Below, piece by piece: positions 546 through 29,239 of a stretch of DNA of 64,000 nt. The notes beneath the pieces were generated by a model. The model did not search any database. It was not told the DNA's origin and saw nothing but the letters and a program-made list of their open reading frames with translations. Both the position numbers and the translations under genes were made by a program. This DNA is from Bacillota bacterium (lineage in GTDB: Bacteria > Bacillota > Clostridia > Christensenellales > UMGS416), in contig JAEZSC010000186.1 of the NCBI GenBank assembly GCA_023422005.1, forward strand, positions 30,219-94,218, given 5' to 3'. How positions within the stretch are numbered: the first letter of the stretch is position 1; each line of letters starts with the position of its first letter.

Positions 546-1580
546 TTAGAATTCTCCCTGAATTTCCTGATACGTGACCCGGCCCTCCAGCGCCAATAGT
601 CGCCGTTTGACTTCCAGCCCGCCGGCATAGCCCACCAAGTCCCCGCTGGCCCCCACAACCCGGTGGCATGGTATGAAGATCGCGAGGGGGTTGCGGTTGT
701 TGGCCATGCCCACGGCGCGACTGGCGGTGGGCTGGCCGATGTGCGCGGCGATCTGCCCGTAGGTGCGCGTTTGCCCGTAGGGGATGGTCAGCAGGGCATC
801 CCACACCTTTCGTTGAAACCCGGTGCCCGCCGGCCGCAGCGGCACGGTGAAGGCCGTGCGCTGCCCGACCAAGTATTCCCACAGCTGCTGTGCCGCCTCA
901 TCGGTGATGGCGCTGCGCCGCAGTGTCGCGCCGGATGGGGGCGGGCCGAAGTCCAACCGGGTCAGGGCGCCTCCGTCGGCGCACAGCGTGACAGGGCCGA
1001 TGGCCGTGTCATAAGAAAAACAGGAATCCGCTGCCGCGGGTGCGCCACCGCGCCGGGCGCGGCCCGGCGTGCCGCCGGCGTGCTTGGCGTGGAAGGCGTA
1101 GAACGCCGACAGGCTGCCAAAGCCCAGCTCCTGGGCCACATCCAGCACCGTCGCGCCCTGGGCCAGCGCGTCGGCGGCGTGTTTCGCCCGCAGGCTGTCT
1201 ACATATTGGCCGGGCGTCATGCTATACGCCGCCCTAGACAGCTCGATGGCGCGGTTGGCCGAGATACCCAGCGCCCGCAGGGACCGCAGCGCCTTGGCCT
1301 TGTCGGCGAAGCCCGCTTCCAACGCGGCCTTCATCCTCTCGGCCAGCTCCCGGTCGGGCCGGTGGTCGGCCAAGTCCGGCCGGCAGCGCTTGCACGGGCG
1401 GTATCCCGCGTCCTGCGCCTGTTGGGGGGTATCAAAATAGGCGACGCCGCAGCGGTTGGGTGTCCGCGACGGGCAGGAGGGGCGGCAGAACACGCCGGTG
1501 GATTTCACCGCATAGTAGAACCGGCCGTCATAGGCGCTGTCGTTGTGTGCAACAGCGGTCAATTTTTCTTCTTCGGTCAT
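546..1580 (-). CDS. ada: Bifunctional Ada: methylphosphotriester-DNA methyltransferase / AraC-type regulator / O6-methylguanine-DNA methyltransferase
   Basis: ORF 546..1988 trimmed to the ATG at 1580 (MTEEEKL). N-terminal Ada Zn site (FCRPSCPSR...CKRC), AraC HTH in the middle, C-terminal MGMT active site IPCHRVV. Confidence 0.9.
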   Translation of the reverse strand: MTEEEKLTAVAHNDSAYDGRFYYAVKSTGVFCRPSCPSRTPNRCGVAYFDTPQQAQDAGYRPCKRCRPDLADHRPDRELAERMKAALEAGFADKAKALRSLRALGISANRAIELSRAAYSMTPGQYVDSLRAKHAADALAQGATVLDVAQELGFGSLSAFYAFHAKHAGGTPGRARRGGAPAAADSCFSYDTAIGPVTLCADGGALTRLDFGPPPSGATLRRSAITDEAAQQLWEYLVGQRTAFTVPLRPAGTGFQRKVWDALLTIPYGQTRTYGQIAAHIGQPTASRAVGMANNRNPLAIFIPCHRVVGASGDLVGYAGGLEVKRRLLALEGRVTYQEIQGEF

Positions 1581-1758
1581 GGTGTTTCCTTCTTCCGTGG
1601 GGCTGTGCGGCGGGCCATGAGACCATCGCTTTATCTGCATTATAACAGAAGATCGTTTTGCTTTCTTTCTGTTCGTCCCCCTGTAATCGCCGTCCGGTTG
1701 GACATTTGTCCACTCTTTTGCTATATTGTTGCAAAACAACCCCGGGAGGTGAGAACCG

Positions 1759-2457
1759 ATGGCGACCAAGAGCAAACCCGCCGAAACGGGGAAGAGGAGA
1801 AGACCGGTGCTGACAGCGTTTTTCTGGCTGCTGGGCGCGGCGGTGGCCGCCGGTTTGGCTGTGCTGGCGCTGGATCTGGTTGTGGTGGCCGGGGGCGGCC
1901 GCGGCATCGTGGCCCAGGCCGACGCGAAGCAGGCCCAGTGCATCATCGTGCCCGGCGCCATGGTGTGGGGGGAGACGCCCAGCTTCATGCTGCAGGACCG
2001 GCTGGACGTGGCGCGGGAGCTCTATGACGCCGGCGTGGCCCCCAAGATATTGGTCAGCGGCGACCACGGGCAGGAGGACTATGACGAAGTGAACACCATG
2101 CGCCGCTATCTGGAGGATCATGGCGTGCCCACCGAGGACATCTTTATGGACCATGCGGGGTTTGACACCTATTCCACGATGGCCCGCGCCAAGGCGGTTT
2201 TTCAGGTGGAGAGCGCCGTTGTCGTGACGCAAAGATACCATCTGTACCGCGCGCTGTTCCTGGCTGGCAACATGGGTATCCGGGCCCAGGGCGTGCCCTG
2301 CGACCGCTACCAATCGGCCCGTCAGTGGTATTACGACATTCGCGAGATCGCCGCCCGCGCCAAGGACTTCGTGACCGCCCGCATCACCCGGCCGAACCCC
2401 AAATATCTGGGCGACGTGATCCCCATCAGCGGCAGCGGCGTGGCCACCCACGACTAG
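1759..2457 (+). CDS. SanA/YdcF (DUF218) family membrane-anchored protein
   Basis: N-terminal TM helix, then IIVPGAMVWG...ILVSGDHGQEDYDEVNTMRRYL...DHAGFDTYST, typical of the SanA/DUF218 core. Confidence 0.75.
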   Translation: MATKSKPAETGKRRRPVLTAFFWLLGAAVAAGLAVLALDLVVVAGGGRGIVAQADAKQAQCIIVPGAMVWGETPSFMLQDRLDVARELYDAGVAPKILVSGDHGQEDYDEVNTMRRYLEDHGVPTEDIFMDHAGFDTYSTMARAKAVFQVESAVVVTQRYHLYRALFLAGNMGIRAQGVPCDRYQSARQWYYDIREIAARAKDFVTARITRPNPKYLGDVIPISGSGVATHD

Positions 2458-3039: not shown

Positions 3040-3648
3040 ATGGACAGGCGCAAGCGCATGGGAATCGTGGCGGCTTTGCTGCTGGTCGCCGCTATGCTGG
3101 CATCCTGCGAGCCGCCCGCAAAGCCTATGCAAACGGTGGAGGCCCTTGCCGAGCCGGTGGAATATTCCGAATTCAACCGGCTGATCGACAGCTCGGACAT
3201 CGTTGTGGTGGGCCGCGTGGTCGGGCCTGGCCAATCGATGGATGCCTTCGCGTTGATGTCGCCCGAAGAAAAGAAAGAGCATGGCATCTCCGACGACAGG
3301 AATTCCCCGATTACCGTGTACGACGTTCAGGTGATGGACTGTTGGAAGGGCGGCTTCGCCAAGGGTGAACGCATCCAGATGTATCTGAGCGGGGGCACAT
3401 GGGACAACGTGTATTATACGGACAACACGATAAAGGACTTTCAGCCGGATCGTGACTATATGCTGTTCCTGGCCAGGCCGATCGTGAAGAGCCTGGGCTA
3501 TTACATGGTCAACTCTACGACCCAGGGCATCGTGGCGGTGGAAGGGGAACGCGTCAAGGACCGGCGAGGCAACCCATGGCTGTTGACCGGGCAAAGCCTG
3601 GACGAAGCCAAACAGGCCTTCCTGCGAGCGCAGGAGGAAGCCCCTTGA
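3040..3648 (+). CDS. Putative lipoprotein, unknown function
   Basis: ATG 3040 lies 7 nt after GGAGG. MDRRKRMGIVAALLLVAAMLASC gives a signal peptide plus lipobox (LASC). No recognisable domain. Confidence 0.55.
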   Translation: MDRRKRMGIVAALLLVAAMLASCEPPAKPMQTVEALAEPVEYSEFNRLIDSSDIVVVGRVVGPGQSMDAFALMSPEEKKEHGISDDRNSPITVYDVQVMDCWKGGFAKGERIQMYLSGGTWDNVYYTDNTIKDFQPDRDYMLFLARPIVKSLGYYMVNSTTQGIVAVEGERVKDRRGNPWLLTGQSLDEAKQAFLRAQEEAP

Positions 3649-10252: not shown

Positions 10253-10295
10253 TATCCTTGTAACGCCATCTGCAACAACATAGAAGGACGTGGGT

Positions 10296-11183
10296 ATGAG
10301 CAAGAACGGGCACACCAACACCGAGGTCCGGGAGACCCCCGGCAGCTGGTTGCTGCGCTTCATCAAGGGCGCCATCATCATCGCCGGGTTCCTGCTGCCG
10401 GGCATCAGCGGCGGCGTGCTGGCCGTGGTGCTGGGCATCTACGAGCCGCTGATGCGCATATTGGGCAACCCGAAAACCCTGTTTCAACGCGATACCCTTC
10501 GGTTCTTTCTGCCGGTCGTGCTGGGCGCGGGCGCGGGCATGATCCTGTTCGCGTGGCTGCTCTCTGCTCTGCTGGATCGCTACGCCGCCTTCGTGATGTG
10601 GTTTTTCATCGGCGGTATCGTCGGCACATTCCCTTCGCTGTACCGCACTGCCGGGCAGCGGGGCCGCACACCGGGCCAGTGGGTGCTGGCGGGGGTATTC
10701 GTCATCGTCACCGCCTGGGGGCTGCACCTGCTGAACCCCGGCGTTGAGGAAGCAGCTGCCGCCATCGCGCCGGTAATGCCCGTGAACAGCCTGTGGACAT
10801 GGCTGTTTGCCGGGGCTTTGATGGGCCTGGGCACGGTGCTGCCGGGCCTGAGCCCCTCCAACTTCCTGCTTTTCCTGGGATTGCTGACGCCGCTGATGGC
10901 CGGCATCAAGTCGTTGGATCCATTGGTCGTGCTTGGCGCGGCGGCGGGCTTTGTCGTATGCGCTCTGGCGCTTGCCAGGCTTATGAACTGGCTGTTTGAC
11001 CGTTTCCACGGTTGGATGTACCATGCGATACTGGGCATCGTCGTGGGTTCCACGCTGGTCATATTGCCCGGGGATTTCCTGACCGCGGTGTTGAGCGCGG
11101 GCATCTTTGTGCTGGGCCTGGCGGCTTCGCTATGGATGGGCGAGAAAGAATCGCTAAAGGACCAGGCATTGCAGGATAAATAA
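10296..11183 (+). CDS. DUF368 family membrane protein (candidate polyprenyl-phosphate translocase, PopT-like)
   Basis: Polytopic protein with the DUF368 signature LLPGISGGVLAVVLGIY, repeated later as VLPGLSPSNFLLFLG. ATG 10296 follows GAAGGA. Confidence 0.75.
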   Translation: MSKNGHTNTEVRETPGSWLLRFIKGAIIIAGFLLPGISGGVLAVVLGIYEPLMRILGNPKTLFQRDTLRFFLPVVLGAGAGMILFAWLLSALLDRYAAFVMWFFIGGIVGTFPSLYRTAGQRGRTPGQWVLAGVFVIVTAWGLHLLNPGVEEAAAAIAPVMPVNSLWTWLFAGALMGLGTVLPGLSPSNFLLFLGLLTPLMAGIKSLDPLVVLGAAAGFVVCALALARLMNWLFDRFHGWMYHAILGIVVGSTLVILPGDFLTAVLSAGIFVLGLAASLWMGEKESLKDQALQDK

Positions 11184-11444
11184 CAGGGCACTCGTCCTTC
11201 TGCCCGGAATTTATATAGAATTTCTGCAAGATTTTTTTCCCAAAGTGCCAGGCGTTCGAGCAATTGCCTGGCATTTTGCGCCTCTTCTTGTGGATAATGC
11301 AACTTTTTGCCGTGAAAGACACAACAGGTGCCACCCATCGCCAAAGTTGGCGAATATTGTAATACGCAAAAAAGAACTTGCAAATCGCACTTATTGGTGC
11401 TACTTTATATGCAAAGATGAGAACGGCTCAAAGCCTTGATCATC

Positions 11445-11527
11445 GACAAAGGTAAACCTGCTGAAAGGCAGCGACACAAAGCTACAGGGCCTACGGGCGA
11501 AAGCCTATGGCAGCCAGTTGCCGAAAG
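11445..11527 (+). promoter_or_regulatory. c-di-GMP-I (GEMM-I) riboswitch aptamer, copy 1
   Basis: aaaGGUAAACC-ugcuGAAAggcag-CGACACAAAGCuacaGGGcc...GAAA...ggCAGCCAGUUGCCGAAAG matches the GEMM-I consensus GGCAAACC..GNRA..GACGCAAAGC..CAGCCGGUUGCC. The G-C/U-A pairs replace Vc2 G21-C46/C22-G45. Confidence 0.8.
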
Positions 11528-11584
11528 ATAGGGGCGTCCCATGTGCGGGCGAGCCGCTTGGCTTGTCGCATCAAGGAGCGTGGC

Positions 11585-11618
11585 ACCCGTTTTCCGGCAA
11601 CGGAAAACGGGTTTTTTG
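11585..11618 (+). terminator. Intrinsic terminator after riboswitch copy 1
   Basis: acccgttttccg gcaa cggaaaacgggt: a 12-bp stem followed by TTTTTT. Confidence 0.75.
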
Positions 11619-11833
11619 TCGTTTCCCTCAAATCTTTACCTTCGTCTTTCCCCAGGAACCGACCGGGGGTTCACCCCCCGGGAGGAAACCAACACCGGAG
11701 TGGTCCCCGCTTTGCAGAACCCGCCCGCAGGCGGTCCCTCGTATCCTGAAAAACGGTTACGAGACGTAAAGTGAGCCGCAGCCTGGCGACAGTTATCGCC
11801 AGGCAAAAACGAAAAGACCGTCACAAGACGTCC

Positions 11834-11866
11834 AAATCGCCGAGGCGCCGCAGCGCCGAGGCGAAA
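11834..11866. repeat. Double mini-hairpin repeat core (CGCC-ga-GGCG x2)
   Basis: aaatcgccgaggcgccgcagcgccgaggcgaaag. Related copies at 9445-9477, 35071-35100, 46951-46986 (reverse complement) and 47484-47512. Confidence 0.6.
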
Positions 11867-11873
11867 GGGCACC

Positions 11874-11956
11874 GATAATAGTAAACCTGCCGAAAGGCAG
11901 CGACACAAAGCTACAGGGCCTACGGGCGAAAGCCTATGGCAGCCAGTTGCCGAAAG
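11874..11956 (+). promoter_or_regulatory. c-di-GMP-I (GEMM-I)-type riboswitch aptamer, copy 2 (A at the position-20 equivalent)
   Basis: 11881-11956 is 75/76 identical to 11452-11527. The single change, U to C, makes the P2 stem CUGCC-GAAA-GGCAG perfect. The 5' flank differs (aauaGUAAACC). Confidence 0.8.
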
Positions 11957-12018
11957 CCGCGCATCGTTCCACTCCCATGGGTGGGGTCTATTCCCCATTC
12001 GTTGTGAAAGGAACCTTC

Positions 12019-12055
12019 AGCCGCAGCCGGCAACGACCGGGCTGCGGCTTTTTTG
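12019..12055 (+). terminator. Intrinsic terminator after riboswitch copy 2, 22 nt upstream of the Tad operon start
   Basis: agccgcagccgg caacga ccgggctgcggct: a 12-bp stem with one bulge, followed by TTTTTT. Confidence 0.75.
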
Positions 12056-12076
12056 ATCGGAAAACAGGAGGGCTTC

Positions 12077-12745
12077 ATGGACCAGTGGATGATGACGATG
12101 ATGCTGTTGTTGGGCGCGGCTTCCGGCTGGGCACTGCTGCCCTACACGTCGTGGATCGTCACCTTGCGGTCAGGCGGCTCTCTGGCCATCCGCCGAGAGG
12201 CCCCAAGCGCGCTGCTCGCGGCCGCGCCTCTGGTCGGCGGCATCGGCTGGGCGCTGTGCTGGGCGCTGGCCCCCACGCCGCTGGAAGCCGTGGAGCTGGC
12301 GCTGCTGCTGACCGCGACGCTGGCGCTCACCGCCATCGACCTGCGCATCCGCGTGATCCCCAATGAGCTGGTGATGGCGCTGCTGCTCTTGAGCACAGCC
12401 TTCGCATTGATGGAGCATGGCATCGCAGCGCTGCCGCTGCGCTTGCTGGGCATGGCCGCGGCGCTGGTGCTCTTCCTGGGCACGGCCCTGCTGGGTGTCA
12501 GCAAAATTGGCGGCGGCGACATCAAGCTGGCCATGGCCATCGGCTTCGCCGCGGGCTGGCCCAACATACTGGTAGCCGTGGCGGCCATGGGCTTGGCGGC
12601 GCTGGCTTCCCGCCTGTGGGACAGCCAGCCCTGGAGCCTGCGCCTGAAGACCCAACTGCCCTTTGCGGGCTTCTTGATGATCGGCCTGCTGGCCGCGCTG
12701 GTTTTGGATAAGGCGCGCCTGCTGGCCCCCCTGCTGGGCTCGTGA
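12077..12745 (+). CDS. Prepilin peptidase, A24 family (TadV/CpaA-like)
   Basis: ATG 12077 follows GGAGGG. Polytopic, with the aspartyl-protease motif GGGDIKLAMAIG and an upstream IDLRIRVIPNE region. Confidence 0.85.
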   Translation: MDQWMMTMMLLLGAASGWALLPYTSWIVTLRSGGSLAIRREAPSALLAAAPLVGGIGWALCWALAPTPLEAVELALLLTATLALTAIDLRIRVIPNELVMALLLLSTAFALMEHGIAALPLRLLGMAAALVLFLGTALLGVSKIGGGDIKLAMAIGFAAGWPNILVAVAAMGLAALASRLWDSQPWSLRLKTQLPFAGFLMIGLLAALVLDKARLLAPLLGS

Positions 12746-12851: not shown

Positions 12852-13025
12852 ATGAAAAACGTCGTCAAGCTGTTCAAGAGCGAAGAAGGACAAGGCATGG
12901 TGGAGTACGGCCTGATCATCGCGCTGGTGGCCGTGGTGGCCATCGTGGGTCTGGCGCTGCTGGGCCCCAAGATCAAGGAAATGTTCACGAACATCGCCGG
13001 CAAACTGAACGCCAACCCGACCTGA
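12852..13025 (+). CDS. flp: Flp/Fap family type IVb pilin, copy 1 (57 aa)
   Basis: Below the ORF-track size cutoff. My translation: MKNVVKLFKSEEGQGMVEYGLIIALVAVVAIVGLALLGPKIKEMFTNIAGKLNANPT. Flp processing motif G/MVEYGLI; GAAGGAG RBS. Confidence 0.85.
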   Translation: MKNVVKLFKSEEGQGMVEYGLIIALVAVVAIVGLALLGPKIKEMFTNIAGKLNANPT

Positions 13026-13057
13026 CGCGGAAACCGCAGAAAAAGAAGGAGATTGTC

Positions 13058-13231
13058 ATGAAAAACATCGTTAAGCTGTTCAAGAGCGAAGAAGGCCAGG
13101 GCATGGTGGAATACGGCCTGATCATCGCGCTGGTGGCCGTGGTGGCCATCGTGGGTCTGGCGCTGCTGGGCCCGAAGATCAAGGATATGTTCACGAACAT
13201 CGCCGGCAAACTGAACGCCAACCCGACGTAA
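13058..13231 (+). CDS. flp: Flp/Fap family type IVb pilin, copy 2 (57 aa)
   Basis: MKNIVKLFKSEEGQGMVEYGLIIALVAVVAIVGLALLGPKIKDMFTNIAGKLNANPT. AAGGAGA RBS. Two substitutions relative to copy 1. Confidence 0.85.
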   Translation: MKNIVKLFKSEEGQGMVEYGLIIALVAVVAIVGLALLGPKIKDMFTNIAGKLNANPT

Positions 13232-13266
13232 GCCCAGAACACCGAATAAGCGAAGGAGAGACTGTT

Positions 13267-13440
13267 ATGAAAAACATCGTCAAGCTGTTCAAGAGCGAAG
13301 AAGGACAAGGCATGGTGGAATATGGCCTGATCATCGCGCTGGTGGCCGTGGTGGCCATCGTGGGTCTGGCGCTGTTGGGCCCGAAGATCAAGGAAATGTT
13401 CACCAACATCGCCGGCAAGCTGGACGCCAACCCGACCTGA
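13267..13440 (+). CDS. flp: Flp/Fap family type IVb pilin, copy 3 (57 aa)
   Basis: MKNIVKLFKSEEGQGMVEYGLIIALVAVVAIVGLALLGPKIKEMFTNIAGKLDANPT. AAGGAGAG RBS. Confidence 0.85.
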   Translation: MKNIVKLFKSEEGQGMVEYGLIIALVAVVAIVGLALLGPKIKEMFTNIAGKLDANPT

Positions 13441-13529: not shown

Positions 13530-13946
13530 ATGTCTCGATTTGCACGCGATCTGAAAAACAGAAAAGGGCAGTCGATGGTGGAGCTGGCTCTCGTGATGCC
13601 CATCCTGCTGCTGGTCGTGTGCGGAATTGTGGATTTTGGCTGGGTGTTCAGCAACAACATGATCACCAGCTACTCCAGCCGCGAGGGCGCCCGCATGGGC
13701 ACCATCGTGGCCGACCAGGCCGACGCCGCTGACCAGGTCACCGACCGCGTCATGGCCGTGACACCGGCCTTCGCCCACAGCGGCATCCAGGTTGCGACGG
13801 CATTCACCAATGCCGCGCAGCCCGAGGAGGGAGACGTCAAGGTAACGGTGCGCTATACGTTCCCGCTGCTGACGCCCTTTGCCCAGATCATCTTCGGCAG
13901 GACGACCTATACGACGGTGAGCACCTGCCAGATGAAGGCGGAATAA
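13530..13946 (+). CDS. tadE: TadE-like pseudopilin / pilus assembly protein
   Basis: N-terminus KGQSMVELALVMPILLLVVCGIVDFGWVF is the TadE-like hydrophobic segment. Confidence 0.8.
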   Translation: MSRFARDLKNRKGQSMVELALVMPILLLVVCGIVDFGWVFSNNMITSYSSREGARMGTIVADQADAADQVTDRVMAVTPAFAHSGIQVATAFTNAAQPEEGDVKVTVRYTFPLLTPFAQIIFGRTTYTTVSTCQMKAE

Positions 13947-13962
13947 GAAAGGAAGCATACCC

Positions 13963-15039
13963 ATGCCGGCCAAACTTCTGATCGACCTGTGGAAAAACAC
14001 CCGCGGCGCCACGATGATACTGGCGACCGTCGTCATGGTCGCGGCGCTGGGCTTCACCGCCGTTGTCGTGGATATCGGCACCGTGGCGCTGGAGAAGCAG
14101 CGCATGCAGAACGCCATCGACGCGGCTTCGCTGGCCGCCGCCCGCGACCTGCCCGATACGGCCAAGGCCGCGGCCACCGCCGTGGAATACATCGAAAAGA
14201 ACGGTTATCAGGCGAGCGATGTCAACATCGCCTTTACCGACGACGATACCGTGATCCGCATCAACGGCAGCAAGCGGGTGGATTACACCTTCGGCCGCGT
14301 GCTGGGGCTCTCGGGCACCACGATTACGCCCGAGGGCGCCGCGGGTTTGGGCCGCGCGGGAGGGGCCTTCGGTTATGCGATCTTCTCCGGCAGCACTTCG
14401 TCCACGCTGTCCCTCAACGGCAGCGAATATTACGTAAAGGGCAGCACCCATACCAACTACAAGTTTGTCGGAAACGGCTCTCGCCTGACCATCACCGGCG
14501 CCTGCGAAGCGGTCAAGACGGTCACCATCAACGGCTCCAAGATCGACGTGCCCACCCGCATCCCCAATGCGCCGTTTATCGAGATGCCGGACTTTTCCGA
14601 GGAGATCCGCCGGCAGGCTGAGGCTGCCGGCCAGCTCTTCAACGGCAACAAGACCTACAACGGCAGCTCCATCGATGTGTCCGCGCCAATCTATGTCAAC
14701 GGCAACGTCACCATCAACGGCAGCAAATTCCACGGTGTGGGTTGCATCTTCGCCACGGGCTCCATCACCTTCAACGGCAGCTCCCAGAAAGTGAGCACCG
14801 GCGACGCCATCTGCATCTACAGCAAGACCGGCAGTATCACCGTCAACGGCTCCGCCGCCACGATCGATGGCATCCTCTACGCACCCAACGGCAGCGTCAA
14901 CATGAACGGCTCCAGCCAGCAGGTCAATGGCCGTGTCATCGGCAATACCGTGAACCTCAACGGCAGCGCCATCCGCGTCATCAGCAGCGAAGAGGACCTC
15001 AGGAGCATTCCGATCACCTACGTGCGGCTGGTCCGCTAA
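13963..15039 (+). CDS. TadG-like (Tad N-terminal domain) protein with an NGS-repeat C-terminal region
   Basis: RGATMILATVVMVAALGFTAVVVDIGTVALEKQRMQNAIDAASLAAA matches the Tad/TadG N-terminal domain. It is followed by 11 N-G-S tripeptides in a periodic pattern. Confidence 0.7.
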   Translation: MPAKLLIDLWKNTRGATMILATVVMVAALGFTAVVVDIGTVALEKQRMQNAIDAASLAAARDLPDTAKAAATAVEYIEKNGYQASDVNIAFTDDDTVIRINGSKRVDYTFGRVLGLSGTTITPEGAAGLGRAGGAFGYAIFSGSTSSTLSLNGSEYYVKGSTHTNYKFVGNGSRLTITGACEAVKTVTINGSKIDVPTRIPNAPFIEMPDFSEEIRRQAEAAGQLFNGNKTYNGSSIDVSAPIYVNGNVTINGSKFHGVGCIFATGSITFNGSSQKVSTGDAICIYSKTGSITVNGSAATIDGILYAPNGSVNMNGSSQQVNGRVIGNTVNLNGSAIRVISSEEDLRSIPITYVRLVR

Positions 15040-15066
15040 CATCCGGCGTAACAGGGGAGTTTTTCT

Positions 15067-15858
15067 GTGAAGAAGATTAGGATCATCGCCGCAATAGCCG
15101 CGGTCGTACTTGCCATCAGCGTCTATGTGTATCTGGACAGCCTGAAAAAGCCGCCGGTGGAAGCGCCGCGTTCGCCGGTGGTTGTGGCCAAGGTGGCCAT
15201 TCACGCCGGCGACGTCATCGGTGAGGACATGGTTTCGATCATCAGCCTGCCCAGCGAGTCGGTGCTGACCGGCGCTGCCCGCACGACCGATGAGGTCGTC
15301 GGGCGCATCAGCGACCGCAACACCGAGGCCGGCGAACAGCTGCTGGTGTCGCGCTTTCTGCAGCCCGGCGAATCCAACGGCGGTTTGAGCTACGTCGTGC
15401 AGAGCGGCATGCGGGCTGTAACCATCCCCACCGACGCCATCAACGGCGTGGCTGGCATGATCAAGCCCCGCAACCGTGTGGATTTGCTGGTTTCGCTGGA
15501 CCTGGCTCTGGGTGTGGACAAGACCGCCGCACCGCGCCCCACGATGGACCCCGAAGCCGTCGTGGGCGGCAGCGCCGACGGTGAGCCGGCGCTGCCACCC
15601 ACCAAGCGCTACTCCATCGTCGCCATGCAGAACATACTGGTGCTGGCCGTTGGCCAGAGCATGGATACGGGCAGCGATGCCGGGCGGGACGCTGTGGCGG
15701 GGGCGGGCACCATCACGCTGCAGGTGACGCCGGAACAGGCGCAGAAGATCAACCTGGCGGCCTCCATGGCCGGCACGATCCGTCTGACGCTGCGTTCGCA
15801 GCTGGACACCGAGACCCAGGATTTGCCGCCCATGGACGAGACTGTATTTTACAAGTAA
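15067..15858 (+). CDS. cpaB: Flp pilus assembly protein CpaB/RcpC
   Basis: GTG start, N-terminal TM anchor, SAF-like segment VVVAKVAIHAGDVIGEDMV, and position within the tad operon. Confidence 0.8.
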   Translation: MKKIRIIAAIAAVVLAISVYVYLDSLKKPPVEAPRSPVVVAKVAIHAGDVIGEDMVSIISLPSESVLTGAARTTDEVVGRISDRNTEAGEQLLVSRFLQPGESNGGLSYVVQSGMRAVTIPTDAINGVAGMIKPRNRVDLLVSLDLALGVDKTAAPRPTMDPEAVVGGSADGEPALPPTKRYSIVAMQNILVLAVGQSMDTGSDAGRDAVAGAGTITLQVTPEQAQKINLAASMAGTIRLTLRSQLDTETQDLPPMDETVFYK

Positions 15859-15871
15859 GGCAGGAATCGCT

Positions 15872-17047
15872 TTGAAAACCAGCGTTTTACTGATAAGTCG
15901 CAGTGAGGAAAAGCGCCAGGCGCTGCACACCCTCATGGAGGCCGAAGAGTTCGGCGTCGTGGCCGGCGTGAAGGGCGGTCTGTCGGCACTGGAGAAGGTG
16001 GACAGCATGTCTCCGGACATCGTGGTGCTGGTACTTTCCGGCGCCGATCCGGACACCTTCACCGTTTGTGAGCGCATCTATCTGGGTAAGCCCAAGTGTA
16101 CGATCGTGCTGGTGGCCGATACGGTGGATGTGGACTCGGTACACCGGGCGCTGGAGGCGGGAGCCACCAGCCTGATCGGCTGGCCGGGCAGCCCGGCGGA
16201 GTTCACCGCGGCGTTGCGGGCCGCCCACAGCCGCAAGAACACCCATCTGGGCGCGCTGGGCGACCCGGACAAGCTGGGCAAGAGCAGCAAGGTCATCACG
16301 GTGTTCGGTACCAAGGGCGGCATCGGCAAGACCACCATCGCCGTGAACCTGGCGGTAAAGCTCTCGCAGATGGGCCAAAAGGTCGCCCTTCTGGATCTGG
16401 ACCTGCAGTTCGGTGACGTCAGCGTATTCCTGGACCTGGAAGCCAAGGACACGCTTTCGGAGCTGGTGCGCGACAAGCCGGATATGGACATCGACTCCAT
16501 CCGCAGCTACATGCTGCTGCACGCCTCCGGCGTGCATGTGCTGTGCGCTCCCAACAGCCCCGAACTGGCAGACACGATCACCAGCCGCCACATCGAAAAG
16601 CTGTTGGGGGCTGTTCGCGGCTATTATGACTACATCATCATCGACACTCCTGCCATGCTGGGCGAATGCACGCTGACGGCCATAGAGGGCAGCTCCCAGG
16701 TGCTGTTCGTGCTGGGGCTGGACATCTCCATCCTGCGCAACGCCCGCATCTGTCTGGGGCTGCTGGAAAGCCTGCAGCAGCGCGACAAGGTCATGCTGGT
16801 CGTCAACCGCGAGGTGGAGGGCTCTGTCACGATCCACGACGTGCAGCGCATCATGGACCGGCCCATTGTGGCGCGCTTCCCCACCGATTGGCGGCTGGCC
16901 GTGGGCGCCCTCAACCGCGGTATGCCCTTGGTGCAGAGCGCCCCCAATTCCGCGCTCAGCCGCGCCATCGCCGCCTTTGCCCAAAGCATGGTGCAGGGCG
17001 AGGCGCCGGCCCGCAAAAAGGGCCGCGCCGCCGGGCGCAAGGGGTAG
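15872..17047 (+). CDS. cpaE: TadZ/CpaE: degenerate receiver domain plus ParA/MinD-like ATPase
   Basis: Deviant Walker A GTKGGIGKTT. The N-terminal REC-like fold lacks the canonical acidic pocket and phospho-Asp (PDIVVLVLSG). Confidence 0.85.
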   Translation: MKTSVLLISRSEEKRQALHTLMEAEEFGVVAGVKGGLSALEKVDSMSPDIVVLVLSGADPDTFTVCERIYLGKPKCTIVLVADTVDVDSVHRALEAGATSLIGWPGSPAEFTAALRAAHSRKNTHLGALGDPDKLGKSSKVITVFGTKGGIGKTTIAVNLAVKLSQMGQKVALLDLDLQFGDVSVFLDLEAKDTLSELVRDKPDMDIDSIRSYMLLHASGVHVLCAPNSPELADTITSRHIEKLLGAVRGYYDYIIIDTPAMLGECTLTAIEGSSQVLFVLGLDISILRNARICLGLLESLQQRDKVMLVVNREVEGSVTIHDVQRIMDRPIVARFPTDWRLAVGALNRGMPLVQSAPNSALSRAIAAFAQSMVQGEAPARKKGRAAGRKG

Positions 17048-17050
17048 CCC

Positions 17051-18409
<1,359 letters not shown>

Positions 18410-18410
18410 C

Positions 18411-19331
18411 GTGGTTGGCCTCATTTCTTTGATCGCCGCGGTGCTGGCCTTCTGCCTGATCGTGTTGGTTTTGGCCTTTATGCAGAGGGACAAGCTGCGC
18501 ATTCGCGCCCGTTTGGAAGCCATGGCAGCGCCGGCCCAGGCTGCCCGGGAGCGCAAGGCCCGGCCCGGCCGGGAGCGCTCCTCCCGCGTGGGCGGCCAGC
18601 TGGCCGGCCAGCTGGAGAGCGCCGGCATTCTGCTGCGGGCCGACGAATTCGTATTGATCTGGGTGTGCGTCACGGTGGCGCCGGCGGGCCTGCTGCTGTT
18701 TTTCAAGGCAAATCCGGTAACGGCCTTCGCCGTGGCGGCTGCCGGCGCTGTGCTGCCGCCCATCCTGGTGTCCATGGCCCGGCGCAAGCGGCTGATGCTC
18801 TTTGACAAACAACTGGGCGACGCGCTGGGCATCATCGGCAACTCGCTGCGGGCGGGGTTCACATTCCAGCAGGCCATGGACAGCATCGCCTCGGAGATGC
18901 CCGACCCCATCGGCAAGGAATTCGCCAAGGCCCTGCGGGAGATGCGCCTGGGCGTGCCCGTGGAGACGGCGCTGGACAACATGGTGCGCCGCATGAACAA
19001 CCCGGACCTGGAGATGCTGGTGACCGCCGTGCTCATTCAGCGCCAGGTGGGCGGCAACCTGGCCGAGGTCATCGACAGCATCGCCGTCACGATCAAGGAC
19101 CGGCTCAAGATCAAGGGCGATGTACGGGTGCTCACGGCTTCCGGGCGCATGAGCGGTACCGTCATCGGCCTGCTGCCGGTGTTTATTTCGGCCATTCTGA
19201 TGGTCATGAACCCGGCCTATGTCATGACGTTCTTCAACACGACCATCGGCATCGTCATGCTGTGCGTCGCTGCCGTCATGGAGACCATCGGTTTTCTGAT
19301 CGTCACCAAGATCGTCAACATCAAGTATTGA
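18411..19331 (+). CDS. tadB: TadB (type II secretion system F family) platform protein
   Basis: GTG 18411 follows GGAGGGA, directly after the cpaF stop. T2SSF-domain membrane protein. The track ORF 18288 start overlaps cpaF and is rejected. Confidence 0.8.
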
Positions 19332-19338
19332 GGTCCTC

Positions 19339-20295
19339 ATGGAACTAGCTGTCCTGTGCACGTTCATACTGACGTTCTGCGTGGTCGTGATGGCGCTGGC
19401 CCCGCTGGGCCGGCGCGCCGACCACATGGTGCGCCGCGTGGGCCGTGTGGCCGACATCGGCAAGGCTGCCGCCATGGAGGCGGAGCTTGCCCGGCCCATC
19501 GGCGAACGCTTCTTCCGCCCGGCGCTGGACGCGCTGGTGCGAGCCTTAAGCCGCTCTCTGACCAAGGGCAAGAACGCCAAGCTGGAGGCCGCCCTCAAGA
19601 GCGCCGGCATCTCCTCGCGGCCCAGCGAATACCGCGCGCTGCAGCTGGTTGTCATGATGGGGCTGTCCATCGTCATGGGCGCTCTGGCCTTTGCCAACAT
19701 CTATTCGATCACCAACGCGCTGGGCATTGCCTATGACCCGCTGGTGGCAGTGGGCCTGACGCTGGCTCTGGCGCTGCTGGGCGGGTTGGTGGGCATGATC
19801 CTGATGACTTATCGCCTGCAGGTGCTCACGCGCACGCGAAAGACCAGCATTCAGCGCCAGCTGCCCGAGGTGCTGGACCTGCTGAGCGTCAGCGTGGAGG
19901 CCGGCCTGGGCTTTGACGCGGCACTGCTGCGGGTGACCGAACGAGCCCGCGGGCCGCTCATCGAGGAGCTCAAGACCGCCTACCGCGAGATCACGCTGGG
20001 CAGACCCCGATCCGAAGCGCTGCGGGCGCTGGAAGCCCGCACCGGTCTGGACGAGGTCAAGACCTTTGTAAGCGCCATCATACAGGCTGAGCAGTTGGGC
20101 ATCTCGCTGCGCAACGTGCTGCGCAGCCAGGCCACGCAGATGCGCCTGCTCAAGCGCCAGCGGGTGGAGGAACGGGCCATGAAGGCGCCGGTCAAGATCA
20201 TGATTCCCATGGCGCTGTTCATCTTTCCGGTGCTCTTCATACTGCTGATGGGGCCGGCGGTCGTCAACATCATCACTACATTTACGGGGGGCTGA
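19339..20295 (+). CDS. tadC: TadC (type II secretion system F family) platform protein
   Basis: Second T2SSF-type membrane protein (LPEVLDLLSVSVEAGLGFDAAL) immediately after tadB. Confidence 0.8.
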   Translation: MELAVLCTFILTFCVVVMALAPLGRRADHMVRRVGRVADIGKAAAMEAELARPIGERFFRPALDALVRALSRSLTKGKNAKLEAALKSAGISSRPSEYRALQLVVMMGLSIVMGALAFANIYSITNALGIAYDPLVAVGLTLALALLGGLVGMILMTYRLQVLTRTRKTSIQRQLPEVLDLLSVSVEAGLGFDAALLRVTERARGPLIEELKTAYREITLGRPRSEALRALEARTGLDEVKTFVSAIIQAEQLGISLRNVLRSQATQMRLLKRQRVEERAMKAPVKIMIPMALFIFPVLFILLMGPAVVNIITTFTGG

Positions 20296-20297
20296 CC

Positions 20298-20735
20298 ATG
20301 GCTATGATCTCGGTGAACGGGGTGCCGGTGGCGGCGTCAGTGGAGGTGGCCAACACCTTCCGGGCGCGATTTAAAGGGCTCATGCTGCGCAAACACCTGC
20401 CCGTGGGCGGCGGGATGCTTTTGACACCGTGCAACAGCGTGCACATGGCCTTCATGCGCATGAGCCTGGATATCGTGTATCTTGGCGCCGACTACACCGT
20501 GTTGGCTGTGGAGCCAAACCTGAAGCCCTGGCGTGTAGGCCGCCTGGTGCGCGGCTGCCGCCATGTATTGGAGCTGCCGGCGGGCCAGGCGGCGCTGGAG
20601 GGCATCGCCCCCGGTGTGAGGCTGGCCGTGCGCATGCCCATGGCGGGCAGCGGCAGGCTCATCAAACCCCGCAGCGCGGCGCAAAGCATCCCCTGCCACG
20701 CCCCGGCGGACCCCCCACTGATGGAAAGAAGGTAG
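20298..20735 (+). CDS. DUF192 domain protein
   Basis: Pattern NTFRARFKGLMLRKHLPVGGGMLLTPCNSVHMAFMRMSLDIVYL...VLELPAG, typical of DUF192 (COG1430). Starts 2 nt after the tadC stop. Confidence 0.7.
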   Translation: MAMISVNGVPVAASVEVANTFRARFKGLMLRKHLPVGGGMLLTPCNSVHMAFMRMSLDIVYLGADYTVLAVEPNLKPWRVGRLVRGCRHVLELPAGQAALEGIAPGVRLAVRMPMAGSGRLIKPRSAAQSIPCHAPADPPLMERR

Positions 20736-20740
20736 TGCAA

Positions 20741-22264
20741 ATGGAAGAAAACCTGCAGCCCCGCGAGGAATCCACCGGCGAACTGAAGCGCCTGCGCGAC
20801 AAGTCCGGCAAGGACGAGCTGGCCGGCGAGCTCAAGCGCTCGCTGCTGGGCGGTGTCAGCCGCGCCGATGTGCTGGCCTATGTGGACAAGCTCAAGGGCC
20901 AGTGGAGCAGCGCCGAGCAGACCTACAAGGCATACATTGCCGACCTGGCCCGGGAGAAGGAGGCGCTGCGCCTGGAGCGTGACGCGCTGGAGAGCCGGGC
21001 CAACGAGCAGCTGCTGCAACTGGAGCAAAGCCGCGCGGCCGCCGACCCGCTGAACCACCCGCAAGTGCTGGAGCTGTGCGAACAGGCTCGCGCCGCCGAG
21101 GCCGCGCTGCAGCAGGCCCAGGCACAGGCCGAGGCCGCCCACAGCCAAAACGCCCAACTTCAGGAGGAGCTGGAACGCCTGCTGCAGCAGGATCAGGAGC
21201 AGCAGCAGCACCTGCGGGAGCTGGCAGAACAGCGGGAGCAGGAGCAGGGCCGCGAAGCCCATGCCCGCTACCAGCAGCAGTCCGCCCAATATGAAGCCAC
21301 CATCGCCGAGCTCAACAGCCGCTTGAACGATCAGCTCTACGAGCTGTCCGACGCGTCGGCGCGCATAGAGGAGCTGGCACGGGAGGCCGAACACAAGGAA
21401 GCCGCCCTGCGCCAGCAGGCGCAGGCCCATGAGCGGGCGCTGTGCGAGGCGCGGGAAGAGATCCAGCGCCGCGCCGAACAGCGGGAAGCCACACTGATTG
21501 CCAACGCCAATGCCGAGACCGCCCAGCTGCGCGCTGCGCTGGAGCGCCGCCTGCAAGAGGTGGAGACCGCGCTGCACAATGCCCGTGCCCGCGCCGCGCA
21601 GCTGGAGCAGCAGGTCTATGAGCTGTCGCTGGAGGCCCAGCGCGCCGGCCGTGATCGCGACGATGCCCAAGCCGACGCCGAGACTGCCCGCGCTGTGGCG
21701 CAAGGGCAGATTCAGAAGTATGAAGAGGCTCATGAGCTCAACCTCCGCCTCAAGGAGACGCTGAGCAGCCTGCTGCTCAAGGCCGAGGCGCTGATCCGCG
21801 AGAACGAGCTGCTTGGCGGCCAGCTGCGCACCGAGCGGGAGCGCGCCGCGCAATACCAGGCCATCCACGAGCGCCTGGTGGATGTGATAGCCCGCGTGCG
21901 CATGGCCAACCAGCTGCTCAGCGAGCGCGTGGCCGACGTGGACCGGGCGCTGGGTTATGGCGGGCCCATACCCCGCAGCACGGGCATGCCCCCGCCGACC
22001 GCCGGCGCCCGCCGCCTGAGCATGGAACCGCTCAACCTGGACGGCGGCAGCTCTGCGCTCTTTGATATGATACAGGAGCTCAACAGCATACAGAGCTCGC
22101 TGACCCAACTGCAGGGGGTGCCTGCCTCGGAGGAGGATAAAAAGCCCAACATCCGTTACAGCATGGAAAAGCTGGAGATGGATTGCCCGCCCAAGAAGGA
22201 CGACGACCGGGATTCATTCCGGGTGATGGGCTTGGGGGATCATAACCAGAAGACCAGAACATAA
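20741..22264 (+). CDS. Long coiled-coil protein with a DivIVA-like N-terminal motif
   Basis: ATG 20741 (MEENLQPREE). LGGVSRADVLAYVDKL resembles the DivIVA G-[YV]-x3-[ED]-V-x2-[FY]-[LV] motif. About 350 aa are Q/E/A/R-rich with heptad character. The upstream part of track ORF 20429 overlaps the DUF192 gene. Confidence 0.6.
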   Translation: MEENLQPREESTGELKRLRDKSGKDELAGELKRSLLGGVSRADVLAYVDKLKGQWSSAEQTYKAYIADLAREKEALRLERDALESRANEQLLQLEQSRAAADPLNHPQVLELCEQARAAEAALQQAQAQAEAAHSQNAQLQEELERLLQQDQEQQQHLRELAEQREQEQGREAHARYQQQSAQYEATIAELNSRLNDQLYELSDASARIEELAREAEHKEAALRQQAQAHERALCEAREEIQRRAEQREATLIANANAETAQLRAALERRLQEVETALHNARARAAQLEQQVYELSLEAQRAGRDRDDAQADAETARAVAQGQIQKYEEAHELNLRLKETLSSLLLKAEALIRENELLGGQLRTERERAAQYQAIHERLVDVIARVRMANQLLSERVADVDRALGYGGPIPRSTGMPPPTAGARRLSMEPLNLDGGSSALFDMIQELNSIQSSLTQLQGVPASEEDKKPNIRYSMEKLEMDCPPKKDDDRDSFRVMGLGDHNQKTRT

Positions 22265-23831: not shown

Positions 23832-24803
23832 CTAGCAGATTCTAGGCAGCCCTTCTCCGGCCAGCGGCCTTATGGTTCGTCTCCCCCCCAAGGCCGTGGC
23901 GATGGACGCGCCGCACCCCTGGGCCACGCGCCCGATGATCGCGGCGTTCTCGCCATAGGGAGAGGCCCGCAGCAGGCCCAGCGCCTTCTGCGCGTCCTCC
24001 CGCGCCACCAGGAATACCATCTTCCCCTCGTTGCCCATATACAACGGGTCCAGACCAAGGATCGAGCAGAAGCCCCGCACCGCCGGGCTCACCGGCAAGC
24101 TGGCGTCCAGCTCCAGCGCTACGTTGTACTGATGCGATAGCTCGTGCAGCACAGTGCCCAGGCCGCCGCGGGTGGCGTCGCGCATGGCGCGTATGGCCAC
24201 GCCCGCGTCCAGCAGCGAGCGCACCATAGAGTTGAGCGGTGCGCAGTCGCTGCGGATGTCATTTTCCACGCCCATACGGGCGGAAAGGATGGCCGCGTGG
24301 TGCTCGCCCAATGTGCCCGAGAGCAGTATGGCGTCGCCGTCTTGCGGCGGCAGCGGGCGGTGGCCGGGGTGCACCGCGCTGATGCCGGCGGTGTTGATGA
24401 TCAGGCCGCCGCGGCCTTCCACAACCTTGGTGTCGCCGGTCACGACGCTGACGCCGGCTTCGGCGGCGGCCCGGGCCATGGAATCCACGACGCGCTCCAG
24501 CGTCTCAATCTCCAGGCCCTCTTCCAGCACGAAGGCGGCGCTCAGGTATTGCGGGGTGGCCCCGGCGGTCAGCAGATCGTTGACGGTGCCGCACACGGCC
24601 AGTTCGCCGATGTCGCCGCCGGGGAAGAACAGCGGCTGCACGACGAAACTGTCGGTCGTGAAGGCCGTTGAGCCCGAGAGGTTCAGTATCGCGGCGTCGC
24701 CGCCCTGGCGCAGCAGAGGGTTGTCCAGGCGGCGCTTGAACACCGTATCGATGAGATCGGCCATCACCGAGCCGCCGCCACCGTGGGACATGTTGATCCG
24801 CAT
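23832..24803 (-). CDS. hypE: Hydrogenase maturation protein HypE
   Basis: ATG 24803 lies 7 nt after AAGGAGG (MRINMSHGGGG). AIR-synthase-like fold and the C-terminal PRIC motif. Confidence 0.9.
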   Translation of the reverse strand: MRINMSHGGGGSVMADLIDTVFKRRLDNPLLRQGGDAAILNLSGSTAFTTDSFVVQPLFFPGGDIGELAVCGTVNDLLTAGATPQYLSAAFVLEEGLEIETLERVVDSMARAAAEAGVSVVTGDTKVVEGRGGLIINTAGISAVHPGHRPLPPQDGDAILLSGTLGEHHAAILSARMGVENDIRSDCAPLNSMVRSLLDAGVAIRAMRDATRGGLGTVLHELSHQYNVALELDASLPVSPAVRGFCSILGLDPLYMGNEGKMVFLVAREDAQKALGLLRASPYGENAAIIGRVAQGCGASIATALGGRRTIRPLAGEGLPRIC

Positions 24804-24914
24804 AGATGGTCCTCCTTGCGAACTTCTGTAATACATCCAATCGCCGCCAACTGGCGGCGATGCTCGGCGTCTTCAGCGCCGACCGGCAATGCTATCACAT
24901 CGGCAAAGCCGACG

Positions 24915-25973
24915 TTACCGCATTGCCTGCGAGGCCTCCCGGTTGGAATACCATATTCCACACGCCCCCTCCTCGGACACCATGCACGCGCCCAGCGGAT
25001 TGCTGGGCGTGCAATGGCCGAACATCGGGCACGCGTCGGGGTGGATGCGCCCGCGCAGCACGTCGGCGCAGCGGCACGGAGTGGCGCTCTCGGCCTCGGC
25101 GATGTCGCGGGAACCGGCGTCCAGGGCCGCGAATTTGCCGCGCAGATAAAGCCCCGACTGCGGGATCACGCCCAAGCCCCGCCAGTGGGCGTCCCCCGGC
25201 TGCAATGCCTGGGCCAGCAGCGCCTGGGCGCGGGGGTTGCCGGCGGCGCTCACGGCCTCGGGGTACAGGTTCTGCACCCGGGCCTCGCCGCGTTGGCACT
25301 GGCGCACCAGCGCCAGCACCGCCATCACCAGGTGTTCGGGCTCAAAGCCCGCCACGGCCATGGGTTTGCGGCGGCTCTCGCACAACGGGCCATAAGCGTC
25401 TGCACCGAGGATTGTGCTGACGTGGCCGGGGCAGAGGAAGCCGTCGATGGCGTTTTCACTGTGGCACAGCGCGTCCATGGCCGGCAAAATGGCTTTCAGC
25501 GACGTCAGGAAGGTCAGGTTCCTCAGGTTTAATTTGAGCGCCTGCTGCGCGGCCAGCGCCCACGCCGGCGCCGTGGTTTCAAAGCCCACCGCCGCCGCCA
25601 CGAAGCGCGTGTCCGGCTGGTCCTTGGCCAGCTCCACGGCCTGGAAGGGCGAATAGATCATGCGGAAGGCCGCGCCGTCGCCCCGGCGGCTCATCAGCGA
25701 CCCGCGCCGCCCCGGCACCTTGAGCATGTCGCCGAAGCTCAGCACGCAGGTGTCGGGGGAGAGGGCGTAATCCAGCAGCCGGTCGATGACGCCCTCGGAC
25801 GTTACGCACACCGGGCAGCCGGGGCCGGACACCAGGCGGATGGCCGGGGGCAGCACATCTCGCAGGCCGCTGCGGAAGATGGCCGCCGTGTGGGTGCCGC
25901 ATACTTCCATGAAGGTCAGCGGCCGGCCGTCGTAGGCTTTTAGTTCCGCCAGTGAGCGTTCAAGGGCCGTCAT
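24915..25973 (-). CDS. hypD: Hydrogenase maturation protein HypD
   Basis: MTALERSLAELKAYDGRPLTFMEVCGTHT, GPGCPVCV and FLCPGHVS motifs. The start overlaps the hypC end by 14 nt. Confidence 0.9.
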   Translation of the reverse strand: MTALERSLAELKAYDGRPLTFMEVCGTHTAAIFRSGLRDVLPPAIRLVSGPGCPVCVTSEGVIDRLLDYALSPDTCVLSFGDMLKVPGRRGSLMSRRGDGAAFRMIYSPFQAVELAKDQPDTRFVAAAVGFETTAPAWALAAQQALKLNLRNLTFLTSLKAILPAMDALCHSENAIDGFLCPGHVSTILGADAYGPLCESRRKPMAVAGFEPEHLVMAVLALVRQCQRGEARVQNLYPEAVSAAGNPRAQALLAQALQPGDAHWRGLGVIPQSGLYLRGKFAALDAGSRDIAEAESATPCRCADVLRGRIHPDACPMFGHCTPSNPLGACMVSEEGACGIWYSNREASQAMR

Positions 25974-29108: not shown

Positions 29109-29239
29109 GGGTTTCTGGCTCCTGTCCAGATCATTTACAAATCTACTTTTAAGTTGGCTTCCCCTCGAGGGGAAGCTGTCACCGAAGGTGACTGATGAGG
29201 TGGCTTTTTCTCATCCGGTGTGATGCGCCATCTTCCAGG

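Follow-up and report, generated by a model that had tools for sequence, protein, structure and literature searches.

Why would a bacterium place two nearly identical cyclic-dinucleotide sensors one after the other in front of a single operon and let them differ at a ligand-contacting base? This question is raised by a 64-kb stretch of DNA from an uncultured Bacillota bacterium (hereafter the window; all coordinates are window positions). In the 890-nt leader region that separates the gene of a VCA0040-like membrane protein (10290-11183) from that of an A24 prepilin peptidase (12077-12745), the latter opening a Tad/Flp pilus operon, we found two aptamers of the c-di-GMP-I riboswitch class (c-di-GMP, cyclic di-GMP), each followed by its own intrinsic terminator. 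At the position equivalent to G20 of the riboswitch Vc2, the operon-distal aptamer has a G and the operon-proximal aptamer an A. With modest confidence, we read this arrangement as two OFF switches in series that resemble Cd1 of C. difficile, unit 1 being a tight c-di-GMP sensor and unit 2 a weaker c-di-GMP sensor that also admits 3'3'-cGAMP (cyclic GMP-AMP), with a two-threshold shut-off of the pilus operon.

Two aptamers with different bases at position 20

The aptamers were identified with the Rfam family RF01051 (gathering score 35 bits) and with R1, a covariance model built in this analysis. The features on which the comparison of the two units rests are the following.

11441-11525, plus strand: aptamer 1, operon-distal, c-di-GMP-I fold (RF01051 75.1 bits, E = 6.3e-13; R1 100 bits)
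11451, plus strand: G at the Vc2-G20 position of aptamer 1 (cmscan alignment and raw sequence)
11870-11954, plus strand: aptamer 2, operon-proximal, c-di-GMP-I fold (RF01051 73.4 bits, E = 1.6e-12; R1 100.9 bits)
11880, plus strand: A at the Vc2-G20 position of aptamer 2 (cmscan alignment and raw sequence)

Both aptamers span RF01051 model positions 1-87 of 87 and score far above the gathering score, and no other Rfam family reached its threshold anywhere in the 64 kb. In the model, positions 12-13 pair with 36-37, corresponding to Vc2 G21-C46 and C22-G45, and the unpaired position 11 corresponds to Vc2 G20. The helix is formed by G11452/U11453 with A11476/C11477 in aptamer 1 and by G11881/U11882 with A11905/C11906 in aptamer 2, i.e. 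by a G-C and a U-A pair. The original prediction had assigned position 20 to G11451 and A11880 and had taken the compensatory change from C-G to U-A as support for this register. The structure-aware alignment and the raw sequence bear out the assignment, and the argument from compensation holds as well: of 32 distinct related aptamers, 24 have C-G and 8 have U-A as the second pair of the helix, and it is never unpaired. The register of position 20 is thus fixed, because the flanking pairs covary across these 32 aptamers. For the fold as a whole, 95.9% of the alignment cells are paired and 13 of the 20 pairs have changed on both sides; none of 500 shuffles reached the covariation score, and slid controls reached at most 44% paired cells.

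The ligand pocket of this class comprises G20, which contacts G-alpha of the ligand, A47/A48, C92 and the GNRA tetraloop (PMC6140456, PMC3764141). In unit 1 these are G11451, A11478-11480 (with 11478 as the A47 equivalent), C11521 and the GAAA loop at 11463-11466. Unit 2 has its A47 equivalent at 11907, its C92 equivalent at 11950 and a GNRA tetraloop, all as in unit 1 except for A11880 in place of G20; the feature that characterizes GEMM-Ib aptamers, an A at Vc2 position 20, is therefore present in unit 2 and absent from unit 1. The copies are identical from 11452/11881 to 11527/11956 apart from U11462 versus C11891 in the pair closing the GAAA tetraloop. The earlier claim that identity ends exactly at position 20 was correct in that this block begins just 3' of it; it was too strict in that 7 of the 11 bases 5' of the block are also identical and that the block itself has this break. 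The two cores form a natural matched pair, differing at the ligand-contacting base, its 5' neighbor and one tetraloop-closing pair.

At position 20, the 32 distinct pilus-associated aptamers have G in 21 cases, A in 10 and C in 1, and with these frequencies a mixed G/A pair is not in itself improbable. A search across the relatives for a second signature correlated with A20 yielded none. The A20 units of the window and of two relatives described below (L007 and L145) have U at position 19, and U also precedes G20 in many relatives.

What does an A at position 20 predict? Wild-type Vc2 has pM affinity for c-di-GMP and binds cGAMP at 10 uM; its G20A mutant is bispecific, with dissociation constants of 53 nM for c-di-GMP and 120 nM for cGAMP (PMC6140456). 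In GEMM-Ib RNAs, A-alpha of cGAMP forms an isosteric pair with the A at this position, and A20 RNAs bind c-di-GMP through a stably protonated adenine (PMC6140456). Gm0970 of Geobacter, with A20, is about 1600-fold selective for cGAMP, and its A20G mutation flips it to c-di-GMP (PMC8835794, PMC6456294). The natural clostridial A20 aptamer Cbe 1-2, on the other hand, prefers c-di-GMP (30 nM versus 463 nM for cGAMP; PMC6140456), and among near-identical aptamers of Desulfobacca acetoxidans that differ at position 20, the A form gains cGAMP affinity and roughly retains its c-di-GMP affinity (PMC9481103). Published A20 aptamers thus range from strongly cGAMP-selective (Gm0970) to c-di-GMP-preferring (Cbe 1-2), and sequence alone is not decisive. 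These data match the earlier statement that A20 is required for recognition of cGAMP without being sufficient for it and that Vc2 G20A is promiscuous. The same source had considered a "different or broader" ligand range possible for the proximal aptamer; of the two, "broader" is better supported, by Cbe 1-2 and D. acetoxidans, and the measured aptamers predict looser and broader binding, not necessarily a different ligand.

Terminators and the polarity of the switches

Downstream of the aptamers, the leader contains the following elements.

11585-11618, plus strand: terminator 1, a 12-bp stem ACCCGUUUUCCG / CGGAAAACGGGU with a GCAA loop, hairpin 11585-11612 followed by U6 (terminator scan; -20.6 kcal/mol)
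11619-11869, plus strand: spacer of about 250 nt that links terminator 1 to aptamer 2, packed with GC-rich hairpins (from the sequence)
12020-12054, plus strand: terminator 2, GCCGCAGCCGG / CCGGGCUGCGGC with one bulge, hairpin 12020-12048 followed by U6 (-21.0 kcal/mol)

The terminators start 59 and 65 nt after their aptamers; terminator 2 was missed by a simple terminator scan because of its bulge. As each aptamer has its own intrinsic terminator, the leader holds two complete riboswitches in series, not two aptamers on one platform.

The terminator 5' strand and loop are complementary to the 3' end of the aptamer upstream. We found a YCGGCAAC-like segment in this part of the terminator, complementary to the invariant aptamer 3' end GUUGCCGAA, in all seven units from four genomes (units 1 and 2 of the window, of L007 and of L009, and the unit of L145). 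The rest of each terminator and the 47-68 nt between aptamer and terminator are unrelated between species. In the six units tested, duplex energies range from -14.5 to -19.9 kcal/mol against shuffle means of -6 to -11 (z = -2.2 to -4.7). For unit 1, the terminator 5' strand and loop (11585-11600) are the predicted antiterminator partner of the aptamer 3' end, with a duplex energy of -19.5 versus a shuffle mean of -10.5 (z = -3.7); for unit 2, the corresponding segment GCAGCCGGCAAC gives -18.2 versus -10.7 (z = -2.6).

Folding of truncated transcripts agreed with this pairing. When transcripts were cut before the terminator 3' strand, the minimum free energy (MFE) structure paired 7-10 bases of the terminator 5' strand and loop into the aptamer proper, which opened the P2 3' strand and the C92 equivalent. 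Aptamer positions 78-93 pair with 14 of the 16 bases that make up the 5' strand and loop of terminator 1, and in terminator 2 the 5' strand pairs with positions 77-91. Enforcing the bound aptamer fold costs 10-15 kcal/mol (26 in unit 1 of L009), which is comparable, in order of magnitude, to pM-nM ligand binding. As soon as the transcript includes the terminator 3' strand, the terminator is thermodynamically favored in either aptamer state, whether the aptamer fold is enforced or free, and the switch decision must therefore be kinetic. Unconstrained full-length MFE folds did not reproduce the aptamer and always showed the terminator; being uninformative for polarity, they were replaced by the truncated and constrained folds.

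In Cd1, an OFF switch with a long platform, the terminator can form alongside the aptamer, and the antiterminator, which is transient, includes the pairs G147-C87 and C148-G86 (PMC9262584). From the complementarity between terminator 5' strand and aptamer 3' end, together with the Cd1-like layout, we infer two OFF switches in series; both units are probably ligand-induced terminators. In the proposed mechanism, the aptamer 3' end (AGUUGCCGAAAG, comprising the C92 equivalent and the P1 3' strand) would pair, when no ligand is bound, with the terminator 5' strand and loop 47-68 nt downstream, which would block the terminator and let transcription continue. With ligand bound, the aptamer would keep its 3' end, the terminator would form and transcription would stop. 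Full-length pilus mRNA would require that both units be unliganded.

The opposite polarity, in which ligand would prevent termination and the pilus would be on at high cyclic-dinucleotide levels (an AND-type gate), is independent of the ligand question, and we regard it as unlikely. Such ON switches would fit the usual promotion of adhesion structures by c-di-GMP, and a terminator that is always present in the full-length MFE is what one expects of an apo-state terminator. However, the terminators are self-contained hairpins at a distance from the aptamer and are able to coexist with the folded aptamer. The sole conserved upstream partner of the terminator 5' strand is the aptamer 3' end, which ligand binding sequesters, and we found no segment able to serve as a ligand-dependent antiterminator. 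The layout is that of Cd1 and not that of pilM, an ON switch.

The spacer had no Rfam match at E values up to 10 and no Pfam signal. It is partly conserved in L145 and is reduced to about 25 nt in L007; it is therefore not part of the conserved design, and L007 has no room there for a separate promoter. A reading of the spacer as a small gene or second promoter was rejected on this ground and because the open reading frames (ORFs) overlapping the leader (11507-11749, plus strand; 11636-11998, minus strand) have no Pfam match. In the distant groups L087/L088/L093/L097 and L011/L098, the tail after P1 resembles, by eye, the terminator 3' strand; to judge from these sequences, distant pilus-associated relatives appear to use other sequences with the same logic.

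An Rfam search of 11200-12200 at permissive E values returned the two RF01051 matches and sub-threshold noise over terminator 2, and no clan member outscored RF01051. Within this noise, a match to BcKCsr2, a Burkholderia small RNA, covers the platform and terminator of unit 2 (11936-12055; 25.3 bits versus a gathering score of 40, E = 0.002) and is most likely a chance match driven by the terminator.

The G-then-A order in relatives

We searched for relatives of the locus by means of CpaF, using 80 loci from species-representative genomes among the matches listed; the window species was not among them. The loci were scanned with Rfam and R1. Full-scoring aptamers (at least 68 bits) lie 5' of the pilus operon in 5 of the 80, all of them Bacillota, and two planctomycete loci gave weak matches of 46-49 bits. 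Among the matches listed, the closest species-level genome is a Bacillota metagenome-assembled genome (MAG; L007, CpaF 76% identical), and the next relatives, at about 60% identity, are MAGs of Clostridiales, Clostridiaceae and Syntrophomonadaceae.

The G20-then-A20 order recurs in two of these relatives. L007 has G20 at 2253-2337 followed by A20 at 2452-2536, and the Clostridiaceae MAG L009 (CpaF 64% identical) has G20 at 3280-3373 followed by A20 at 3518-3604. Both have the window's order of G unit, terminator, A unit and terminator, followed by the peptidase start codon. A protein homologue search added four relatives on contigs of about 1 kb, of which L145 (peptidase 72% identical) alone reached the proximal aptamer. 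This short contig covers the proximal unit only, which has A20 in the context GAUAAU-A-GU, as in the window, despite compensatory changes in the tetraloop hairpin. Within the window species, both strain haplotypes have G in unit 1 and A in unit 2.

Other relatives have different arrangements. The Syntrophomonadaceae MAG L015 (2819-3557) has A, A and G, L011 has a single G20 aptamer, and L008 has G20 on a contig that ends 185 nt upstream, leaving room for an unseen upstream unit. A peptidase-based metagenome scan, whose relatives are at most 42% identical and were used for position-20 frequencies and not for orthology, added A20 in the single aptamers L088 and L114 and in the A,A tandem L087.

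Several of these loci have features of their own. In L015, 26 nt separate the two A20 aptamers, which are placed back to back with one common terminator and are followed by a small ORF and then by the G20 aptamer directly before flp. L120 has a divergent aptamer pair 300 nt apart, at 1964-2049 (plus strand) and 1573-1658 (minus strand, G20); the former appears to have C in the position-20 column, where the alignment is possibly off by one base. Compared with the window (11184-11500), the haplotypes L002 and L005 (2108-2420) are heavily diverged over a stretch that reaches from the upstream gene into aptamer 1, as far as about alignment column 313; beyond this they are identical to the window, which looks like a recombination breakpoint within the riboswitch. 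In their aptamer 1, the tetraloop-closing pair has a C where the window has a U, and P3 reads AACGG in place of ACGGG.

Comparison of the two copies between species pointed to concerted evolution. In the core (alignment columns 12-106), the copies differ by one base in the window and by one base in L007, both at column 22. The cores of the window and L007 differ from each other at six columns (32, 34, 45, 54, 55 and 86), and these are the same in both copies, implying that the cores have been homogenized within each genome since the species split. Three copy-specific states are nonetheless common to both species (unit 1/unit 2): column 10 with purine/U, column 11, i.e. position 20, with G/A, and column 22 with U/C. 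Homogenization of the core with retention of these columns explains why copy identity nearly stops at position 20. The retention of G/A may reflect either selection for the difference or conversion tracts whose start lies 3' of column 22; the first shared species-specific change is at column 32. The L009 copies, although strongly diverged (33 differences), still have the order G then A, suggesting an old origin of the heterotypic pair.

A simpler explanation would be a plain homotypic tandem, i.e. two ordinary c-di-GMP switches that make the response more digital, with a neutral G/A difference that lies outside the gene-conversion tract. We consider this rather doubtful, although, among riboswitch classes, tandems are most common in c-di-GMP-I (347 doublets and 12 triplets; PMC9481103), A20 is common in this clade, as the position-20 counts and the A,A and A,A,G arrangements of L087 and L015 show, and A20 aptamers still bind c-di-GMP; a tract boundary can also account for the retention of G/A. 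Yet the copy-specific states at columns 10, 11 and 22 persist although platforms and spacers have diverged almost completely, and a G-to-A change that shifts c-di-GMP affinity by orders of magnitude, as in Vc2 from pM to 53 nM, is unlikely to be silent.

At the other end stands a true two-signal gate, as put forward in the original prediction, in which unit 2 would be cGAMP-selective in the manner of GEMM-Ib and unit 1 would respond to c-di-GMP. Since the expression platforms indicate OFF switches, any such gate would be NOR-like, with repression by either signal, not activation. The pairing of A20 with A-alpha of cGAMP and the flipped selectivity of Gm0970 A20G speak for this possibility, as do the conserved G-then-A order in L007 and L009, the A20 kept in L145, and cores so nearly identical that position 20 is the main pocket difference. 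We nevertheless judge it very unlikely: Vc2 G20A, Cbe 1-2 and the D. acetoxidans aptamer are bispecific with A20 alone, and related pilus operons (L088, L114) are preceded by a single A20 aptamer as their sole sensor, in keeping with ordinary control by c-di-GMP. A supply of cGAMP is not apparent either. The original prediction had suggested a search for a Hypr-GGDEF or DncV-like synthase; in the 64-kb window, the reading frames of at least 100 codons contain no GG[DE]EF-type motif, and none of the 47 ORFs scanned had a GGDEF, SMODS or CD-NTase match in Pfam. Because 64 kb of the genome are visible, this absence is weak negative evidence. The origin of Hypr GGDEFs has been placed in ancestral deltaproteobacteria (PMC6456294), and the two-signal gate keeps the standing of a conjecture. 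Its selected form, a natural NOR gate with c-di-GMP as input to unit 1 and 3'3'-cGAMP as input to unit 2, in which the G/A difference has been maintained by selection against repeated gene conversion, seems hardly probable. If true, some Bacillota would use cGAMP as a housekeeping second messenger for surface behavior, and the cGAMP-making enzyme would lie outside the known Hypr-GGDEF lineage or be borrowed from a CD-NTase.

We return to two OFF switches of different affinity as the reading that we favor. Unit 1 would act as a tight, c-di-GMP-specific sensor, and unit 2, by analogy with the measured A20 aptamers, would bind c-di-GMP more weakly through a protonated adenine and would bind 3'3'-cGAMP in addition. 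The likely outcome would be a two-threshold, deeper and steeper shut-off of the pilus as c-di-GMP rises, and a cGAMP input would exist only if the cell ever makes cGAMP. Several points weigh against this reading. An adhesive pilus repressed by c-di-GMP would be at odds with the attachment-promoting role usually expected of this molecule. The full-length MFE holds the terminator in both states, such that the switch must be kinetic, as for Cd1, and the folds were computed without tertiary contacts, P1 or ligand. Gm0970 shows that context matters, and unit 2 could be cGAMP-selective. Finally, the retention of G/A can be explained without selection if conversion tracts start 3' of column 22, and the three or four lineages that share it may represent a single ancestral event.

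Relation to known riboswitches and the surrounding genes

Every component of the leader is already known, as tandem arrangements, the role of position 20 and the OFF-type switch Cd1 have all been described. With Vc2 and RF01051, the window units share the GAAA tetraloop hairpin, the helix of G21-C46 and C22-G45 type, the AAA junction with the A47 equivalent, the C92 equivalent and, in unit 1, G20. Unlike Vc2, unit 2 has A20, the second helix pair is U-A instead of C-G, and the units have intrinsic terminators, whereas Vc2 is described as a translational switch (PMC9262584). Like the GEMM-Ib riboswitches of Geobacter (Gs1761, Gm0970, pilM), unit 2 has an A at the equivalent of position 20 (A14 in Gs1761), and tandem arrangements and pilus-related genes occur in Geobacter too. 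The Geobacter riboswitches differ from the window in their host, which is a deltaproteobacterium and not a member of the Bacillota, and in polarity: the Geobacter units are ON switches, the pilM terminator overlapping the aptamer (PMC9262584), whereas the window units have an OFF-type layout and no Hypr GGDEF was found in the 64-kb window. The best predictor for unit 2 is Cbe 1-2 of Clostridium beijerinckii, a c-di-GMP-I A20 aptamer from the Firmicutes, compared at position 20 alone.

In platform, the units resemble Cd1, which also combines a long platform and a self-contained terminator with an antiterminator made of the terminator 5' strand and the aptamer 3' end (the GC of the pocket). Cd1 is, however, a single unit with G at position 20 in front of a flagellar operon, while the window has two units in front of Tad pili. 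The clusters of D. acetoxidans (PMC9481103) likewise contain very similar c-di-GMP-I aptamers that differ at position 20 within one genome; there, the G and A aptamers belong to different clusters, each with an adenosylcobalamin riboswitch, and are predicted ON switches, whereas here they stand in series in one leader. Known tandems, such as Bc3-5 of Bacillus thuringiensis, are also complete units with their own platforms in one 5' untranslated region and give a sharper response. These published tandems are described as same-ligand devices, in contrast to the heterotypic G20/A20 pair of the window.

In the survey of tandem riboswitches (PMC9481103), the table of Boolean gates has no entry for a conserved heterotypic pair of G20 and A20 aptamers within one leader, and we did not find such a pair in the searchable literature, a scope outside which two primary papers of 2015 lie. 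G20/A20 pairs may be hidden among the 347 known doublets. We also found no report, in the literature searched, of c-di-GMP-I control of Tad/Flp operons in Firmicutes. Because the matched pair recurs in sister species, the contribution of position 20 can be measured in a native non-Geobacter context with few constructs; it is this design, together with the concerted evolution of the copies, that makes the pair worth a bench test. If the A20 unit responded to cGAMP in vivo, the leader would be the first logic gate with two cyclic dinucleotides as inputs that we have found described, and would point to cGAMP signaling in Firmicutes. If it were merely a weaker c-di-GMP sensor, one point change would set two thresholds in a tandem riboswitch. 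If the OFF polarity is true, c-di-GMP represses the Tad pilus in these bacteria and does not induce it.

The operon and the putative start of its leader comprise the following features.

11378-11411, plus strand: candidate leader promoter, TTGCAA, 17-nt spacer, TACTTT (found by eye; low confidence)
12077-12745, plus strand: A24 prepilin (Flp) peptidase, first gene of the downstream operon (PF01478, E = 1e-13)
12852-13025, 13058-13231 and 13267-13440, plus strand: three tandem 57-aa Flp pilin genes (PF04964 each, E ~1e-11)
13530-20735, plus strand: remaining Tad locus with TadE, TadG-like, CpaB/RcpC, TadZ, CpaF ATPase, TadB, TadC and DUF192 (Pfam)

The candidate promoter lies in a block kept by both strain haplotypes (alignment columns about 188-240); a promoter consensus scan of the plus strand did not report it. 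By Pfam content, the Tad/Flp locus 3' of the leader is complete, from the A24 peptidase through DUF192. An identical A24 peptidase is present on metagenome contigs (ENA ERZ28599564 and others).

The three Flp pilin genes (12852-13440) are near-identical, and same-species contigs (L001, L002 and L003) hold one, two or three copies, implying that pilin copy number is polymorphic between strains. The TadZ/CpaE-like ATPase (15872-17047) combines an N-terminal response-regulator receiver domain with a ParA-type ATPase; owing to this receiver domain, the pilus machinery may have a second, protein-level signaling input. At the end of the locus, the DUF192 ORF (20298-20735) overlaps about 300 nt of a 611-aa ORF (20429-22264) that has no Pfam match, and the start of one of the two is probably mis-set. 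Further downstream, on the minus strand, a hydrogenase cluster (23832-34761) encodes HypE-like, HypD, HypF and HypB/CobW-type maturation proteins together with complex-I-like [NiFe] subunits (49-kDa/NiFeSe, NADHdh and Proton_antipo_M), and resembles a membrane hydrogenase of the Ech/Mbh type.

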